DNA of 42,182 bases, from the IMG/VR virus record IMGVR_UViG_3300045988_041703; one strand, given 5' to 3'. Of this stretch, positions 78 to 13,138 are shown piece after piece; position 1 is the stretch's first letter, and every line of letters begins with the position of its first letter. The notes beneath the pieces are model-generated. The model did no database searches, was not told where the DNA came from, and was given only the letters and a program-made list of their open reading frames with translations. The stretch is from a virus. The position numbers and the translations under genes were made by a program.

Positions 78-1469
78 TCAAAATTTAAACTGTATCTCAT
101 TGATTTTAACTGTGTTGAGAGTCTTATTTTTGTTAAACTCTTTAGGTATAAATTCGAATTTAATTACATCAACACTACTTGTAATTAAATCCTCTTTATC
201 TTCAAGTGTTGCTATTTTAAAACCTTTAATCAATAAGTTTTTAACTGTTCTTATTTGTTCTTCATTTAATTTTTCATCGGTATGTGATTTCGCTTTTTCT
301 TCAATATCTTTTAATAAGTTTTCTGTTTCGTCCATTAACATAAAATATTCTTCGTCTTTGATATATCCTAATGACCAAGACCGTGTATAATTTGCTCTTT
401 GTTCATTTATCTTTACCTTGTTATCTTCAATATCGTAGCTTTTCTTTTTAGGTACACTTATTTTAAAATTATCCGTTCCTTTTTTGAGTAAGGTGTTTAT
501 AAACTGTCTTTCTATTTCACTTTCGTTAAATGATATATTTTTAACTGTGTTGTCCCTATGACATTTGTCACATGAATAACGTCTAACTTCACGAGTTTTA
601 CCGTTATCGTATTTCTTTATAGATCTAGATAGGTGTAATTTGCTTTGGCATCGCGGACATTCCAAAACACCTCTAAATATAGCTTTGTGTTTCGATTTAG
701 TTTTATAAGTACGTTTTTCGATAATATCAATCAGTTTTAAATATTCATCTTCGCTTATAATTGGTTCGTGAGTGTTCTCTATTAATAAGTCTCCAAATTT
801 AGTATGGCCACGCATAACTGGATTTTTTATCCAATTAAGAATCATTTTTCTATTCCATTTCGTTATACCAGGTGGCTTCTTCTTGCTTTCTAACTGCCTA
901 ACAACTTCACTCGCACTCTTACCAATCATTAACTTATCTACCATGAAACGAATATATTTAGCGTGTTGATTAGGTTTTAATTTATCGTCTATTAAATCGT
1001 AACAAAATGGCCGAGCCCTAATATATTTACCACTTCTAATCGCAGCGTGACTACCCATTAAAGAACGCTCTCGTATTGTCTCACGCTCCCACTCTGCCAT
1101 TGCACCAACCATTGTTATAAATAACTTGCCTATAGCGGAATTTGTGTCAAATACCTCAGTTGCGCTTTTAAAAGCTATATTGTTTTTTTCGAAAACTTCT
1201 AACATTTCCAGTAAATCTCTAACATTACGTGTTAATCTATCCAATTTGTATACTAGTACTAAATCGAATTCTTCTAATCTATCAAACAACTTTTGTAATG
1301 ATGGCCTTTTCATTGAACCTCCAGAAACGCCCGGGTCTGAAAATACTTCGTATCGATTCCAGTCGTTAACTTCACAAAATGAAATTAACTTTCTTTTTTG
1401 TTCGTGTATAGAATACCCTTCATTTGCCTGTTCAGCGCTTGAAACTCTAGTGTAAATTGCTACTTTCAT
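78..1469 (-). CDS. int: large serine recombinase (phage integrase)
   Basis: N-terminal resolvase catalytic domain (MKVAIYTRVSSAEQ...GYSIHEQ), recombinase domain, Zn-ribbon CPRCQS...YSCDKC and C-terminal coiled coil. ATG at 1469 is preceded by GAGGAGGG; the track start 1493 is a TTG inside the RBS. Adjacent to attL. Confidence 0.85.
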   Translation of the reverse strand: MKVAIYTRVSSAEQANEGYSIHEQKRKLISFCEVNDWNRYEVFSDPGVSGGSMKRPSLQKLFDRLEEFDLVLVYKLDRLTRNVRDLLEMLEVFEKNNIAFKSATEVFDTNSAIGKLFITMVGAMAEWERETIRERSLMGSHAAIRSGKYIRARPFCYDLIDDKLKPNQHAKYIRFMVDKLMIGKSASEVVRQLESKKKPPGITKWNRKMILNWIKNPVMRGHTKFGDLLIENTHEPIISEDEYLKLIDIIEKRTYKTKSKHKAIFRGVLECPRCQSKLHLSRSIKKYDNGKTREVRRYSCDKCHRDNTVKNISFNESEIERQFINTLLKKGTDNFKISVPKKKSYDIEDNKVKINEQRANYTRSWSLGYIKDEEYFMLMDETENLLKDIEEKAKSHTDEKLNEEQIRTVKNLLIKGFKIATLEDKEDLITSSVDVIKFEFIPKEFNKNKTLNTVKINEIQFKF

Positions 1470-1526: not shown

Positions 1527-2030
1527 TTATTGTTGAACAACTATTGCTTCACTTCTTGCTTTTCCTACTTCTTTTCTAAAACTATCATATGATTGATTAG
1601 GGTGTGTTAACGACATTCCTGGACCACCTCCAGCATGTTGGTTTTTGTCCGGATTATTTTCCATTTCTTCAGTGGCTCTTTTAGCATTTAAATATTCTTC
1701 GTAACTAGGTTCGTTTGGGTCGCGTGGTTGTGCTTGTTGTCCATTATTGGTAGCTGGAAGATCCTTCTGTACCTGTTGCTTAGATGTGTTATTGGTTTGT
1801 TGATCGTTGTTAACGTTTGTGTTGTTCTCGTTGTTTACTTGATTATTGTTATCGTTTTGATTAGCATTTTCTTTTTTCGCTTCTGCTTTTTCTTTAGTTT
1901 CTTTCTTTTTATCTTTGTTCTCTTTCTTTGTTTCTGTTTTTTTACTTTCCTCTTTCTTATCGCCGTCGTTACTACCACATGCACCTAACACCAACGTACT
2001 TGCTAATAGTAAACCTAATAATCTTTTCAT
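1527..2030 (-). CDS. prophage lipoprotein (signal peptide + lipobox LGAC, low-complexity K/E/N/Q-rich linker)
   Basis: MKRLLGLLLASTLVLGACGSN is a typical Gram-positive lipoprotein signal with lipobox Cys. RBS AAAGGAGA 8 nt upstream. Located in the lysogeny module next to int. Confidence 0.6.
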   Translation of the reverse strand: MKRLLGLLLASTLVLGACGSNDGDKKEESKKTETKKENKDKKKETKEKAEAKKENANQNDNNNQVNNENNTNVNNDQQTNNTSKQQVQKDLPATNNGQQAQPRDPNEPSYEEYLNAKRATEEMENNPDKNQHAGGGPGMSLTHPNQSYDSFRKEVGKARSEAIVVQQ

Positions 2031-4016: not shown

Positions 4017-4160
4017 ATGTTACAAAAATTTAGAATCGCGAAAGAAAAAAGTAAATTAAAACTTAATTTACTAAAACATGCAAACAGTAATTTAGAAACA
4101 AGAAACAACCCTGAACTGTTGCGAGCAGTTGCAGAGTTGCTTAAAGAGATTAATCGATAA
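4017..4160 (+). CDS. small hypothetical protein (47 aa)
   Basis: Not in the track. RBS AAAGGAGGAA 6 nt upstream of ATG 4017. Its 3' end overlaps the convergent gene 4150-4368. Confidence 0.3.
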   Translation: MLQKFRIAKEKSKLKLNLLKHANSNLETRNNPELLRAVAELLKEINR

Positions 4161-4368
4161 ATTCTATGAATTCGATTTTAGCTGAAGCGATAGCTACTAT
4201 TTTGTCTCCAACAAAAGTATATGAGCCATTAGTGAACAAGGAACTTTTAATTTTTTCTTTTGATATTTCAACAGTTCCGCGATGACCTGACTTTATCACT
4301 TTTTCTAAATTATCGATTTCAACAAATTTATCGTTAGAAAGATATAAACAAGCTTTCATACTTATCAC
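4150..4368 (-). CDS. hypothetical protein (72 aa), antisense to the early operon
   Basis: Own RBS AAGGAGGTGA 5 nt before ATG 4368. TATAAT at 4394-4389 (minus). Opposite orientation to flanking early genes. Confidence 0.45.
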   Translation of the reverse strand: MISMKACLYLSNDKFVEIDNLEKVIKSGHRGTVEISKEKIKSSLFTNGSYTFVGDKIVAIASAKIEFIEFID

Positions 4369-7026: not shown

Positions 7027-7578
7027 ATGAACGAATTATGGAAAGATGTTGTAGGTTACGAGGGCATATACGAAGTAAGCAGTAAAGGTAGAGTTAGAAC
7101 TCACAAAAATAAAGTTACTTGGTCTAACCGTTATCAAAAATGGAGGCATTGGAAACAGCGTTATTTAAAAGATAAAACACCTAATGGTCGAGATGTAAGA
7201 GTAACCCTTTGGAAAAATGGTAAACGCAAAGATTTTTTAGTCCACAGATTAGTGGCATTCGCCTTTATACCAATGATAGAAGGTAAAAATTGTATTAACC
7301 ATATTGACGGGAACCCCAAAAATAACAATGTAGAAAATCTTGAATGGTGTAATCACTTGGAAAATAATAGGCATGCATTTGAAACAGGATTAATGCATAC
7401 CAATATGGCTGTAAAACTTATTAATCATTTAGGTATCGAATATGAATTTATAAGTATGAGTAGAGCAGGAAAATTCTTAGGCAGAAGTCATAGTTATATT
7501 AGCGACAAAATAAAAAATAATCACAAAGATGTTACTGATATACATGGTAATAAATATAAATTTGAGAAGTTGATATAA
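7027..7578 (+). CDS. HNH homing endonuclease (NUMOD4 + HNH_3)
   Basis: N-terminal NUMOD4 (LWKDVVGYEGIYEVSSKGRVRT). HNH_3 (HRLVAFAFIP...INHIDGNPKNNNVENLEWCNHLENNRH). Confidence 0.6.
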   Translation: MNELWKDVVGYEGIYEVSSKGRVRTHKNKVTWSNRYQKWRHWKQRYLKDKTPNGRDVRVTLWKNGKRKDFLVHRLVAFAFIPMIEGKNCINHIDGNPKNNNVENLEWCNHLENNRHAFETGLMHTNMAVKLINHLGIEYEFISMSRAGKFLGRSHSYISDKIKNNHKDVTDIHGNKYKFEKLI

Positions 7579-8253
7579 ATGCCGAAAATTACTAGTTATA
7601 TCACTCAAGATGACGGTACAACAACAGTTGTCATCTCGGGTGTTGAATTAGGTAATAAAGAAACATTACTACTTGATAACGGGTTTGATGTGGAAGTCGA
7701 TGTGAGCGTCATAGATCCGTTTCGAATTACCGGCAAGCAACGACGAAAAATATTCGCGCTTGTCAAAGACATAGAAGAATATACAGGTCAACCAATGGAC
7801 TATATGCGACATATGTTCATCGAGTATGTAAGGACTTACTACGGCTATGATGAACGTATTTCACTAAGTAATTGTACGAGAACACAAGCAAGTCAAATCA
7901 TTGAAGCAACGCTTGACTGGACGTTCTACAATGACATACCACTTAGCTACAAAACGAGTAATCTACTGAAACGAGATAAATCATTCTTATACTGGTCAAC
8001 TGTTAACCGCAACTGTGTAATATGCGGAAAGCCTCACGCTGACTTAGCACATTACGAAGCAGTAGGTAGAGGCATGAACAGAAACAAGATGAATCACTAC
8101 GACAAACATGTATTAGCGTTATGTCGCGAACATCACAACGAGCAACATGCAATTGGTGTTAAGTCGTTTGATGATAAATATCACTTGCATGACTCGTGGA
8201 TAAAAGTTGATGAGAGGCTCAATAAAATGTTGAAAGGAGAGAAAGAGAAATGA
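7579..8253 (+). CDS. DUF968-like protein with HNH-type Cys/His cluster
   Basis: CVICGKPHADLAHYEAVGRGMNRNK...CREHHNEQH. Common Staphylococcus phage replication-module protein. Confidence 0.45.
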   Translation: MPKITSYITQDDGTTTVVISGVELGNKETLLLDNGFDVEVDVSVIDPFRITGKQRRKIFALVKDIEEYTGQPMDYMRHMFIEYVRTYYGYDERISLSNCTRTQASQIIEATLDWTFYNDIPLSYKTSNLLKRDKSFLYWSTVNRNCVICGKPHADLAHYEAVGRGMNRNKMNHYDKHVLALCREHHNEQHAIGVKSFDDKYHLHDSWIKVDERLNKMLKGEKEK

Positions 8254-8369
8254 ACAAAATATTAATACGCTTTGCTATTAACTATATAAAATATCAACAA
8301 AAACAATTGCGTGAAAAAGAAGCCCGAATTAAATATCTAGAGGGTTTCTTAAAAGGGAAGGGTTATTGA
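8250..8369 (+). CDS. small basic peptide (39 aa)
   Basis: ATG overlaps the stop of the upstream gene (ATGA). GGAGA 10 nt upstream. Converges on the antisense gene. Confidence 0.25.
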   Translation: MNKILIRFAINYIKYQQKQLREKEARIKYLEGFLKGKGY

Positions 8370-9013
8370 CTGTTTTTGTTTTGCAATTCCATCAATCTTT
8401 CAAATTGATCCGGATACTGAACGGCAAGTTCCATCATTCTTACCATAGAATCAGCGGGAATATCAGGGTCTTGTTTGGTCACTGAAGGTAGAAACTCTTT
8501 TAATTCGGATAAATCGCTTTTTATATCTAACAAATGTCTATTTAAAACACCGTATTCATTATCGATATTATTATACTTATTGACTGGATTTTCAAAATTG
8601 AAATCATTATCTGTAAATGTTTTGATAGTTTCTTTAAGTTGGTCTTTGGCATTTACTACATCCGCGTATAATTCGCTGTAGTAAATTGTACGGTAAGTGC
8701 TAACATCAAAAGGGATATTCTCATCTTTGTTAATCATAGTAATTGTTGGTCTCTCTAGAGCGTGTCTGTAACCTAATTCATAAAATACGTTCGGGTTATG
8801 CGTACTCAAATCTACAATAACTAATTCAGAATTCGTTAATCCACCAATTATTTCATCAGTGATTTTATTGGTCGATGATATAAGGTCAGATCGTTGGATT
8901 TCAAAATCTGATTCTAAAGCAGGTTTTATGATGGATTGTAAAAGAAAATCAGAGTTTCTTCTTACTTTAGAATCATCAGTACCTATAGGGCAAGCAATGA
9001 AACATTTTTTCAA
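8363..9013 (-). CDS. DNPH1 / nucleoside 2-deoxyribosyltransferase-like (SLOG-fold) protein with C-terminal helical extension; antisense moron
   Basis: CFIACPIG...SELVIVDLSTHNPNVFYELGYRHALERPTITMI aligns by eye with the DNPH1/Rcl segment ADVVVAEVTQPSLGVGYELGRAVALGKPIL, which holds the catalytic Glu in YELG. Likely TTG start at 9013 (AGGAG-N8-TTG); the track GTG at 9022 overlaps the SD. Extended -10 TGTTATAAT upstream on the minus strand. Confidence 0.55.
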   Translation of the reverse strand: MKKCFIACPIGTDDSKVRRNSDFLLQSIIKPALESDFEIQRSDLISSTNKITDEIIGGLTNSELVIVDLSTHNPNVFYELGYRHALERPTITMINKDENIPFDVSTYRTIYYSELYADVVNAKDQLKETIKTFTDNDFNFENPVNKYNNIDNEYGVLNRHLLDIKSDLSELKEFLPSVTKQDPDIPADSMVRMMELAVQYPDQFERLMELQNKNSQ

Positions 9014-9037
9014 GTTATTCACTCCTAATCATATTTT

Positions 9038-9049
9038 TATTAATTATAA
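9038..9049 (-). promoter_or_regulatory. extended -10 promoter (TGtTATAAT) for the antisense gene 8363-9013
   Basis: Reverse complement of 9038-9049 reads ...ctgTTATAATta. Possible -35 TTGCCA at 20-nt spacing. Overlaps the RBS of the divergent rep gene. Confidence 0.4.
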
Positions 9050-9067
9050 CAGAAAGGAGATAAAAAA

Positions 9068-9838
9068 ATGGCAACATTTAGAACGATAAAAGAAAGTGGC
9101 GATTTTGTAACTGTGCATAAATCTTTTGTGTTCGATAGTAATTTAAGTGCTAAAGCTAAAGGGATATTATTGTATTTCCTGAGTCGTCCTGACAATTGGC
9201 AAATATACACGTCAGAAGTAGTTAAACATATGAATGATGGACAAAAATCAATCAATAGTGGCGTTCAAGAACTTATGGATAATAAATATGTTCACAGAAT
9301 ACAAAAAAGAGCTGAAAACGGTGTGTTTAAAGGTTTTGAATACTTAGTTTACGAAAAACCAACCGAAATGCCATTTTCGGAAAACGGATTATCGGCAAAC
9401 GGGTTTTCGGAAAACGGAAAAACGGAAAACCGAAAAGGGCGTACTACTAATAATAATAGTACTAATAATGATTTAACTAATAATAACAATACTAATAATG
9501 AAGGAAGTATATTGTCGGGCAACCCGACGGTGTCTTCCATTCCCTATAAAGAAATTATCGAATACTTAAATAAAAAAGCAGGAAAGCATTTTAAACATAA
9601 TACAGCTAAAACAAAAGATTTTATTAAAGCAAGATGGAATCAAGATTTTAGGTTGGAGGATTTTAAAAAGGTGATTGATATCAAAACAGCTGAATGGTTA
9701 AACACGGATAGCGATAAATACCTTAGACCAGAAACACTTTTTGGCAATAAATTTGAGGGATACCTCAATCAAAAAGTACAACCAACTGGCACGGATCAAT
9801 TGGAACGTATGAAGTACGACGAAAGTTATTGGGATTAG
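9068..9838 (+). CDS. replisome organizer / replication initiation protein (DnaD-like C-terminal domain)
   Basis: N-terminal phage replisome-organizer-like region, N/T-rich linker and DnaD-type C-terminus (YKEIIEYLNKKAGKHFKHNTAKTKDFIKARWNQ...FKKVID). Followed by the DnaC-like gene. Confidence 0.6.
   Translation: MATFRTIKESGDFVTVHKSFVFDSNLSAKAKGILLYFLSRPDNWQIYTSEVVKHMNDGQKSINSGVQELMDNKYVHRIQKRAENGVFKGFEYLVYEKPTEMPFSENGLSANGFSENGKTENRKGRTTNNNSTNNDLTNNNNTNNEGSILSGNPTVSSIPYKEIIEYLNKKAGKHFKHNTAKTKDFIKARWNQDFRLEDFKKVIDIKTAEWLNTDSDKYLRPETLFGNKFEGYLNQKVQPTGTDQLERMKYDESYWD
9365..9425. repeat. direct repeats ttttcggaaaacgg (x2) plus degenerate copies inside rep gene: candidate origin iterons
   Basis: ccattttcggaaaacggattatcggcaaacgggttttcggaaaacggaaaaacggaaaaccgaaaag. 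Protein-level repeat FSENG...FSENG. Origins inside initiator genes are a known phage arrangement. Confidence 0.4.
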
Positions 9839-12669: not shown

Positions 12670-12917
12670 TGACCATGACAGATAGCGGACGTAAAGAATA
12701 CTTAAAACATTTTTTCGGCTCTAAGAGATATCTGTATCAGGATAACGAACGAGTGGCACATATCCATGTAGTAAATGGCACTTATTACTTTCACGGTCAT
12801 ATCGTGCCAGGTTGGCAAGGTGTGAAAAAGACATTTGATACAGCGGAAGAGCTTGAAACATATATAAAGCAACATGGTTTGGAATACGAGGAACAGAAGC
12901 AACTAACTTTATTTTAG
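12666..12917 (+). CDS. hypothetical protein (83 aa)
   Basis: ATGA-coupled ORF. Confidence 0.45.
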   Translation: MMTMTDSGRKEYLKHFFGSKRYLYQDNERVAHIHVVNGTYYFHGHIVPGWQGVKKTFDTAEELETYIKQHGLEYEEQKQLTLF

Positions 12918-12931
12918 AGGAGATGGAAATA

Positions 12932-13138
12932 ATGAAAGGCAAAGTTGAAAAAGAAGTGAATTTACCTGAACTTATCCAATGGGCTTGGGATAACCCCAAG
13001 TTATCAGGAAACAAAAGATTCTATTCAAATGATGTTGAACGCAACTGTTGTGTGACTTTTGATGTTGATAGCATCTTATGTAATGTGGCTGGATACGTAT
13101 CAATTAACGATAAATTTACTATTCAAGAGGAGATATAA
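12932..13138 (+). CDS. hypothetical protein (68 aa), short paralog of the next gene
   Basis: N-terminus MKGKVEKEVNLPELIQWAWDNPKLSGNKRFYS matches MKIKVKKEMRLDELIKWARENPDLSQGKIFFS of 13141-13545. ATG 12932 is 9 nt after GAGGAG. Confidence 0.45.
   Translation: MKGKVEKEVNLPELIQWAWDNPKLSGNKRFYSNDVERNCCVTFDVDSILCNVAGYVSINDKFTIQEEI

Follow-up and report, generated by a model that had tools for sequence, protein, structure and literature searches.

A single long gene that runs against the early lytic operon of a temperate Staphylococcus aureus phage forms, together with its own promoter and a small convergent partner gene, a unit that sequence comparison finds conserved from Staphylococcus to Streptococcus prophages. 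The phage is IMG/VR record IMGVR_UViG_3300045988_041703, a stretch of 42,182 nucleotides (the window) that holds a complete temperate siphovirus. The large gene encodes a protein whose N-terminal domain resembles nucleoside 2-deoxyribosyltransferases (NDTs) and the N-hydrolase DNPH1, also called Rcl, and the partner encodes a protein of 39 amino acids (aa). The hosts in which the two-gene unit occurs are S. aureus, coagulase-negative staphylococci, Streptococcus pyogenes, Streptococcus agalactiae, Streptococcus mitis, and Streptococcus suis. On balance, we lean toward the view that the two genes form a prophage immunity module, arranged as a "noncontiguous operon" inside the early lytic operon, whose effector would be turned off by the resident phage. 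The broader proposal, that this is an unrecognized two-gene immunity system of Bacillota prophages in which a latent NDT-like N-glycosidase, made in the lysogen from a conserved promoter without a -35 element, is paired with a convergently encoded 39-57-aa I-x-[YF]-L-x-G protein as its lytic-cycle antidote, is put forward tentatively, as possible rather than probable. The kinds of system drawn on are known ones, namely prophage abortive-infection morons, NDT/TIR-type effectors, and noncontiguous-operon immunity, and the unit is not categorically new. A preliminary description of the locus, made from the sequence alone, had read the large gene as an antisense, self-promoted DNPH1/NDT-like gene that might act on nucleotides against superinfecting phages or in counter-defense. 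Its structural and positional reading is supported by the present analysis, in which each runnable check that it had suggested turned out favorably, and its functional proposal is plausible.

The antisense gene, its promoter and its small partner

In the window, a lysogeny module on the minus strand (serine recombinase and cI-like repressor) precedes the long lytic operon on the plus strand. The sole long minus-strand open reading frame (ORF) amid the plus-strand genes spans 8363..9022 in the ORF list and encodes 219 aa when counted from a GTG codon. This GTG, at 9022, falls inside the Shine-Dalgarno (SD) site AGGAG (9026-9022), and the real product is therefore likely the 216-aa protein that begins at a TTG (9013-9011) 8 nt past that site. 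The choice of start is based on this spacing and on the RefSeq annotation of the ortholog in phage SA13, which is 651 nt long; residue numbers below follow the 219-aa ORF unless stated. The ORF list and the Pfam matches of the flanks agree with the earlier placement of the gene between a DUF968 gene and a replication initiator (Table 1), and in phages phiJB and 80alpha the right-boundary gene is annotated as a replication initiation protein with the origin inside it. Phi06_2986 B is 100% identical to the window across the 2.5 kb that was tested, and SA13 and SA75 are ~98% identical.

The extended -10 element and the SD site that had been described upstream of the gene are both present. Along the minus strand, TTGCCA is followed after 20 nt by TATAAT, with a TG one base ahead of the hexamer. 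A generic promoter scan did not list this site, and TGTTATAAT was overlooked because it has no good or canonical -35, with the TTGCCA lying 20 nt off. In 12/12 orthologs (4 Staphylococcus and 5 Streptococcus species), TGnTATAAT lies 28-40 nt ahead of the start, a recurrence far above chance, and in both genera it is followed by an A-rich leader and then by GATT(A/G)GAG. The 12 orthologs take in gene copies at other prophage positions, and since the promoter is kept at those sites and across genera, it travels with the gene. The small partner does so as well, and this mobility of the unit was missing from the preliminary description. Like the immune gene of the Tha/Ith pair of S. aureus prophages, which is compared below, the large gene has its own promoter and is nested in antisense inside an operon of the opposite program.

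The setting of the unit differs between hosts. Antisense orthologs divergent from the rep initiator are found in S. simulans, S. auricularis, and S. marylandisciuri and also, at 48-49% identity, as two divergent alleles of S. aureus; on one staphylococcal contig the gene adjoins cro instead. At 34-38% identity, the orthologs of the Streptococcus prophages Javan37, 315.2, SM1, Javan367, and Javan566 are flanked by the cI-like repressor and cro and share the orientation of the repressor and the integrase.

The 39-aa ORF had been noted before as overlapping the 3' end of the large gene and as possibly belonging to the same unit. The ORF and its 7-nt overlap are confirmed, and its membership of the unit is strongly supported by purifying selection, by co-occurrence, and by homologs in a second genus. 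When the window is compared with S. simulans, the 39-aa gene shows 18 differences in 120 nt, 15 of which are at codon position 3. These amount to 15 synonymous and 2 non-synonymous codon changes, against 1-2 and 16-17 in the shifted frames, a pattern that marks the ORF as a real gene under purifying selection and that is new here. A chance ORF opened by the conserved ATG after DUF968 was considered and rejected because of this codon-position pattern and because the ORF is also present where the upstream gene is SSB or cro. It lies beside all staphylococcal orthologs, including that of S. auricularis, where SSB is upstream, and the copy next to cro, where the small ORF begins with GTG; the 7-nt stop overlap is kept in S. 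simulans, S. auricularis, and the two divergent alleles. A tblastn search with the peptide matches exactly 16 phage records, the same ones in which the large gene is found. The peptide sequence is confined to the NDT-like cassette: phages with an Abi_alpha gene at this position (discussed below) carry an ORF of 38 aa that differs from it, and phiPV83 lacks one altogether.

The counterpart in the Streptococcus prophages, a gene of 45-57 aa, is encoded on the other strand and shares 32-65 nt with the 3' end of the large gene; throughout, the small partner is convergent at that end. The small proteins of both genera share the motif I-x-[YF]-L-x-G, which reads EKEARIKYLEGFLKG in Staphylococcus, ENEELKISYLKGKVEG in 315.2, SISFLRGYIKG in Javan37, ELAISYLRGIVD in SM1, ELAITYLRGVMDG in Javan367, DKATIAYLIGLVQG in an unannotated ORF of Javan566, and DKAHIAYLEGFVKG in a Bacillota metagenome-assembled genome. 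A small overlapping gene on the opposite strand, conserved with the large one, is also what characterizes the Tha/Ith type of arrangement. In PHROGs the small proteins are split over four separate families of unknown function, and their relationship has therefore apparently gone unnoticed so far.

The conserved pairing of an enzyme-like large protein with a small one also recalls a toxin-antitoxin-like addiction or lysogeny-stabilizing module, with an NDT-like toxin and a 39-aa antitoxin that would serve prophage maintenance or the control of lysis and lysogeny. The position of the pair beside the cI/cro switch in the Streptococcus prophages is consistent with this, and the antisense promoter fires into the replication operon, which it could dampen. 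However, the two genes are convergent and belong to opposite programs, so toxin and antitoxin would not be produced together in the lysogen, and the staphylococcal slot is shared with Abi_alpha, an abortive-infection family. We consider such a module unlikely, although it overlaps with the immunity module favored here, since many toxin-antitoxin systems act as defense.

An NDT-type fold with its own invariant residues

The AlphaFold2 model of the large protein has a mean pLDDT of 77.8, reaching 88-93 across most of the N-terminal domain core. It is made up of a five-stranded alpha/beta domain (residues 1-135) followed by lower-confidence helices at 154-182, 190-202, and 204-217, in keeping with the helical C-terminal extension proposed earlier (approximately residues 136-219). 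This helical region is a candidate sensor or oligomerization part. The closest folds to the model are MilB, NDT, and DNPH1, with TIR domains second, and in a Foldseek search against the Protein Data Bank (PDB) the first 14 places are all NDTs, followed by TIR-STING and then by DNPH1. LOG and DprA are not among the best structural matches, so the NDT/DNPH1 part of the original fold assignment stands and its "SLOG" label is imprecise.

Sequence profiles place the protein in the same area but at a greater distance. A Pfam search at E<=10 reported PF05014 alone, at 18.0 bits (E 0.0033) and below the gathering threshold of 28.8 bits, and gave no match to TIR, TIR_2, DUF1863, or DUF4062; some relatives do exceed the PF05014 threshold (P0146, 34.4 bits). 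The protein belongs to PHROG 3634, a family of unknown function, and some databases label it nucleoside 2-deoxyribosyltransferase. Nothing useful came from an NCBIfam search, no solved structure of a close relative was found in the PDB, and no report on the NDT-like slot gene was found in the literature.

In 29 homologs, down to 31% identity, the invariant residues are C7, F8, R21, R44, D71, N76-P77-N78-V79-F80, E82, R86, and P104-F105-D106. When the family profile was compared with PDB sequences, Rcl/DNPH1 was the sole enzyme found (E 0.005). The alignment pairs ...LVIVDLTSHNPNVFYELGYR... with ...VVVAEVTQPSLGVGYELGRA... of Rcl/DNPH1, and for this reason Glu82 falls on the catalytic Glu (YELG) of that enzyme. 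Both protein segments on which the first assignment relied, CFIACPIG and VIVDLSTHNPNVFYELGYRHAL, are present in the translation; the DNPH1 segment quoted beside them is genuine Rcl sequence and aligns as proposed, and the YELG Glu, invariant in all 29 homologs, sits on the DNPH1 nucleophile. The protein has the NDT-type alpha/beta fold, and its putative nucleophile Glu stands where the helix after beta3 begins, within (Y/F)E(L/I)G; described as a TIR-like fold, it likewise has a Glu in the helix that is topologically equivalent.

The active site is nonetheless no copy of DNPH1. Asp69 of Rcl, which is Asp72 in NDT, contacts the 3'-OH of the sugar, and in the profile alignment its position falls on Ile58, which is invariant in the large protein; the chemistry may therefore differ. 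Aligned PDB entries show D, N, and A as variant residues at this position. Given this substitution and the sub-threshold Pfam score, the dNMP/dNTP chemistry of the preliminary description is a conjecture, and NAD+, which TIRs and the NDT-like effector of retron Ec86 are reported to cleave, would be at least as likely a substrate as nucleotides, on which DNPH1 and MilB act.

Set against DNPH1, the PF05014 NDTs, and the CMP hydrolase MilB, the large protein has its own invariant set (R21, R44, D71, NPN, R86, and PFD), an additional helical region of ~80 aa, and the setting of a lysogen-type moron with a small partner. It could still be a phage enzyme of nucleotide metabolism, a deoxyribosyltransferase or dNMP/NMP hydrolase that tunes pools for the phage's own replication and whose strand is incidental. 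This is suggested by its closest folds, all metabolic enzymes, by its location within the replication module, by the database name, and by several members of the broad family that adjoin guaA, guaB, or ribonucleotide reductase (RNR) genes. It is made quite improbable by the orientation against the lytic operon and the own promoter that is conserved across genera, by the accessory nature of the gene and its allelism with Abi_alpha, by the extra C-terminal domain and the dedicated small partner, and by the lack of the Asp that contacts the sugar 3'-OH in DNPH1. In addition, a related staphylococcal prophage with an antisense NDT-like gene (L023) also encodes a canonical PF05014 deoxyribosyltransferase of 154 aa in lytic orientation (142-606, minus strand).

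The missing sugar-binding Asp might instead point to a sensor or regulator without catalysis, in which the NDT/TIR-like fold serves only to bind a nucleotide ligand, as related Rossmann-like folds (SLOG and some TIRs) serve as ligand sensors. We regard this as very improbable, as the nucleophile Glu and the polar set R21, R44, D71, N76, N78, R86, and D106 are invariant and make up a typical active site, and no effector domain or conserved effector gene accompanies the large gene.

A link to immunity at the level of the domain comes from PADLOC, where the large protein matches positions 264-372 of the 388-position CBASS "Effector / TIR" profile PDLC00733 with an E of 1.4e-12. The match is common to 29/29 homologs and 10/10 distant representatives, and the domain thus has an NDT-type N-glycosidase fold, one that immune effectors use as well. 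Identification as a CBASS effector was rejected, as the match is at the domain level and no cyclase gene lies in the neighborhood in the window. The large protein differs from TIR NADase effectors (PDLC00733, SpbK, and the DUF4062 protein "Swarozyc") in that it has no match to the Pfam TIR-type families listed above, in that its spacing and YELG motif are of the NDT type, and in that it has no CD-NTase close by and leaves the N-terminal part of the CBASS profile unmatched. On the effector side, precedents are provided by the single-gene TIR-like NADases Swarozyc and SpbK. Retron Ec86 (Retron-Eco1) is closer in kind, as its effector has an NDT-like N-glycosidase domain, is of the abortive-infection type and inactive until phage infection, and is reported to deplete NAD+ or adenine nucleotides. 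In contrast to Ec86, the large-gene locus has no reverse transcriptase, msDNA, or winged helix-turn-helix (wHTH) lobe and gives no PADLOC match to a retron effector, and the small protein and antisense transcription are proposed as regulators instead of msDNA.

A cassette slot shared with Abi_alpha

Among ~218 phage records with shared flanks, 16 carry the large gene, and these represent ~11 distinct phages. The gene is 98.3-100% identical in nucleotide sequence across carriers and the flanks are 91-98% identical. This survey of presence and absence, suggested as a check in the preliminary description, indicates that the gene is accessory and moves horizontally. In phiPV83 the slot is empty and the DUF968 gene overlaps the rep gene, with an SD region equivalent to the AAGGAG at 8234-8239 preceding the rep start. 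In many other phages, including 53, 77, 88, 92, 80alpha, phiJB, phiNM1, phiNM2, and phiNM4, the same slot holds an antisense gene of 285 aa that is annotated DUF4393; in phage 53 its product matches Pfam Abi_alpha with an E of 8.8e-45. The DUF968/rep junction is thus a cassette slot shared with Abi_alpha, a point that had not been recognized before.

The likeness between the two cassettes extends beyond position. The Abi_alpha cassette (PF14337; 80alpha gp19, phiNM1 A0EWI8, and phages 53, 77, and phiJB) occupies exactly the same antisense slot and has a TGnTATAAT -10 and a similar SD context, so that the -10 element and the SD island are alike between cassettes; in the phiJB record a leftward promoter, P1L, is annotated at the equivalent place for the Abi_alpha allele. 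By contrast, the encoded proteins are unrelated in fold and family, and the small ORFs are unrelated beyond their first residues. The small ORF of the Abi_alpha cassettes is a plus-strand ORF of 38 aa (MNRLRIIKIALLIVILAEEIRNAMHAVKVEKILKSPFS) that overlaps the Abi_alpha 3' end by 8 nt and is identical in five phages, and it may be an analogous partner of Abi_alpha. A third type of cassette is seen in phi13 (L012 ~900-1180, minus), where the same slot holds an unannotated antisense ORF of 93 aa (PHROG 1090, function unknown) with the same SD island upstream. Identity of the slot gene with PdpSau, the abortive-infection protein of phage 53, was considered and rejected: the two are separate ORFs, PdpSau being ORF016 and the slot gene ORF015, and PdpSau is described among accessory genes shown with the lytic module.

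Data on expression in lysogens come from the literature and concern the Abi_alpha allele, not the NDT-like gene. In uninfected phiNM1 lysogens, the Abi_alpha protein accounts for 42% of prophage protein, more than any other (10.1101/2025.10.23.684294), and the 285-aa slot gene is the only antisense gene in that region of phiNM1. In 80alpha, orf19 is among the antisense genes of "noncontiguous operons" whose transcription switches on induction (PMC11087260); orf19 is gp19, the slot gene.

A precedent for such an arrangement is the Tha-Ith pair of S. aureus prophages (Rostol et al. 2024, PMC11087260), which is found in the same phage group and combines an immune gene with a small overlapping gene on the opposite strand. 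The immune protein Tha is made in lysogeny and is blocked on induction by the product of the small gene of the opposite program, and antisense transcription aids the switch (PMC11087260). The present unit differs in that its effector is NDT-like whereas Tha is a HEPN protein, and in that it lies in the replication module (beside cro in Streptococcus) whereas Tha-Ith lies in the cI operon. The 39-aa protein has no sequence relation to Ith, and an inhibitory role for it would be by analogy.

Orientation also bears on a role in counter-defense, in which the enzyme would protect the phage by restoring pools or by cleaving or sequestering host immune signals such as cADPR isomers or cyclic oligonucleotides. 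Nucleotide binding is a property of NDT-like and TIR-like folds, the gene is borne by a phage, and the preliminary description had raised the idea. Tad2-like Pfam matches (PF11195) occur in the early regions of the module-carrying prophages of S. simulans (L017 10194-10427) and S. auricularis (L020 8215-8439, weak), which would fit as well. Known anti-defense genes, however, are early lytic, whereas the large gene is in lysogenic orientation; homologs stand in non-phage islets beside Abi_2 or AAA_21/RloB genes, and the enzyme domain matches a defense effector profile. A counter-defense function is accordingly given little credence here and is judged improbable.

Table 1. Coordinates of the NDT-like gene, its partner, their signals, the slot boundaries, and the small ORF of the allelic cassettes (window positions, unless a phage is named)
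Feature	Position	Strand	Remarks
NDT-like large gene	8363..9013	-	216 aa from TTG; N-terminal NDT/DNPH1/TIR-like domain, helical C-terminal region
Catalytic-type domain	8618..9013	-	ORF residues ~1-135; predicted flavodoxin-like alpha/beta fold, NDT/DNPH1/MilB type
Motif NPNVFYELGYR	8765..8797	-	ORF residues 76-86
Putative catalytic Glu82	codon 8777-8779	-	Glu79 in 216-aa numbering; invariant in 29 homologs
C-terminal helical region	8366..8617	-	ORF residues ~136-219; variable across the wider family
Extended -10 promoter TGTTATAAT	9043..9051	-	from sequence; overlaps the ribosome-binding-site region of the divergent replication-initiator gene
Shine-Dalgarno AGGAG	9022..9026	-	8 nt upstream of TTG; from sequence
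39-aa partner gene (MNKILIRFAINYIKYQQKQLREKEARIKYLEGFLKGKGY)	8250..8369	+	lytic orientation; ATG overlaps DUF968 stop (ATGA); PHROG 19309, function unknown
Shine-Dalgarno AAGGAG of the 39-aa gene	8234..8239	+	10 nt upstream of ATG; from sequence
Overlap of convergent stop codons (TTATTGA / TCAATAA)	8363..8369	.	7 nt
HNHc_6/DUF968 gene	7579..8253	+	left slot boundary, early lytic operon; Pfam E 6.2e-80
Replication initiator	9068..9838	+	right slot boundary; Phg_2220_C plus HTH_36, Pfam E 1.2e-31
38-aa ORF of Abi_alpha cassettes	L002 2679-2795 (53), L011 799-915 (phiJB), L016 972-1088 (80alpha)	+	

Several other features of the window were noted in passing. A homing endonuclease gene (NUMOD4 plus HNH_3, 7027-7578, plus strand) lies between the SSB and HNHc_6/DUF968 genes; SA13 has no such insert, and SSB directly precedes the DUF968 gene there. 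A second small antisense ORF of 72 aa is found among the plus-strand early genes (4150-4368, minus strand), in a place analogous to that of 80alpha gp11, another antisense gene of a "noncontiguous operon". In the lysogeny module, between integrase and repressor, a 167-aa protein (1527-2030, minus strand) has a lipoprotein-type signal (LLASTLVLGAC) and a low-complexity region, and it is a possible surface or exclusion factor. A minus-strand ORF of 97 aa (12721-13014) was considered as a second moron and set aside as spurious, because plus-strand genes overlap it.

Proposed mechanism and the wider family

The proposed module takes as its starting point the observed anatomy, promoter, fold, conserved active-site residues, cassette nature, and linkage and selection of the partner. 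From the literature it borrows the expression of the allelic slot gene in lysogens and the precedents for the effector type and for the off-switch; the enzyme activity, its substrate, its trigger, and the inhibitory role of the partner are what we infer. In the lysogen, the large gene would be transcribed from its own extended -10 promoter, opposing a silent lytic operon, and its product, latent until triggered, would be an NDT/DNPH1/TIR-type N-glycosidase in which Glu82 would serve as the nucleophile and the invariant Arg21, Arg44, and Arg86 would be suited to binding a phosphorylated substrate. Infection by a foreign phage would activate the enzyme, presumably through the variable helical C-terminal part, and destruction of NAD+ or of a nucleotide pool would then abort the infection. 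On induction of the resident prophage, transcription of the early operon would run antisense through the large gene and would also yield the 39-aa partner, which may be translationally coupled to the DUF968 gene. If the partner neutralizes the enzyme, as Ith does for Tha, the phage would thereby spare its own lytic cycle.

Beyond the prophage subfamily, the domain is very widespread. A profile search of 1.84 billion cluster representatives gave 33,576 at E<=0.001 and 4,463 at E<=1e-30, and a motif scan with one genome per species found the family in at least 585 species, from nearly all bacterial phyla and some archaea. Members are ~190-470 aa long, and many align to positions 3-185 only. Other architectures combine the domain with C-terminal pentapeptide repeats, with an N-terminal AbiEi-like wHTH, or with a tandem copy, and a form of ~400 aa has the domain at the C-terminus behind an N-terminal part of unknown nature (examples are L049, L079, L082, and L091-L096, and P0121, P0156, P0191, P0123, and P0146). 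These ~400-aa proteins have no N-terminal match to the CBASS profile and no CD-NTase neighbor.

Among the more distant relatives, some stand alone and antisense in the early region of another prophage; others belong to islets that also hold Abi_2 and a cI-like gene, or AAA_21/RloB, HerA-like, and recombinase genes. In Latilactobacillus phage TMW 1.1365 P2, an NDT-like homolog beside cro (L110 1001-1558) is annotated publicly as "primase", which is probably a misannotation. Small convergent genes are also present in the distant prophages L003 and L007 and in the Latilactobacillus prophage; no homology between them and the partner was detected. A hidden Markov model (HMM) of the small proteins likewise found nothing next to distant family members.

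A conserved operon partner of the broad family was looked for and not found, as the 115 immediate neighbors of 68 distant members are spread over 105 Pfam families. Among them are a few restriction-modification, mad, LmuB, ThsA-macro, and integrase genes, and also guaA, guaB, and RNR; the defense genes come to a handful, as a raw count without a background rate. With neighbors so heterogeneous and no conserved partner, we restrict functional claims to the prophage subfamily.

Several observations weigh against the immunity module. The neighbors of the broad family are mostly housekeeping genes with few defense genes, so defense cannot be assumed for the family as a whole, and the HMM search finds the partner family in Bacillota prophages only. 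The score to the Pfam NDT family lies below its gathering threshold, and Ile58 takes the place of Rcl Asp69. The large gene is part of no PADLOC system model and has a single domain-level match. The partner is cast as an inhibitor purely by analogy. Finally, no terminator or RNA element was found that would delimit the transcripts: a terminator scan showed no intrinsic terminator between the convergent genes, the hairpin there is non-significant (z -0.47), and Rfam gave no match to a structured RNA at this point.

Clusters P0004 and P0029 place the large gene on at least ~2,000 contigs of S. aureus, and relatives occur in prophages of major streptococcal pathogens. If the unit is a defense module, it would affect which therapeutic or transducing phages are able to infect carrier lysogens. 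An NDT-type enzyme with a dedicated peptide off-switch would join the known abortive-infection effectors, and the enzyme may define a new substrate specificity in a superfamily of >30,000 sequence clusters. With a conserved promoter, a single catalytic Glu, and a 39-aa partner to manipulate, the model can be tested directly by simple genetics. If it is true, the unit would be a second, independent case in which prophages avoid autoimmunity by means of small opposite-strand genes, and the Tha/Ith principle would extend to a new class of effector. The DUF968/rep junction would then be a slot for effector-antidote pairs, since the Abi_alpha cassette has a small ORF of its own.

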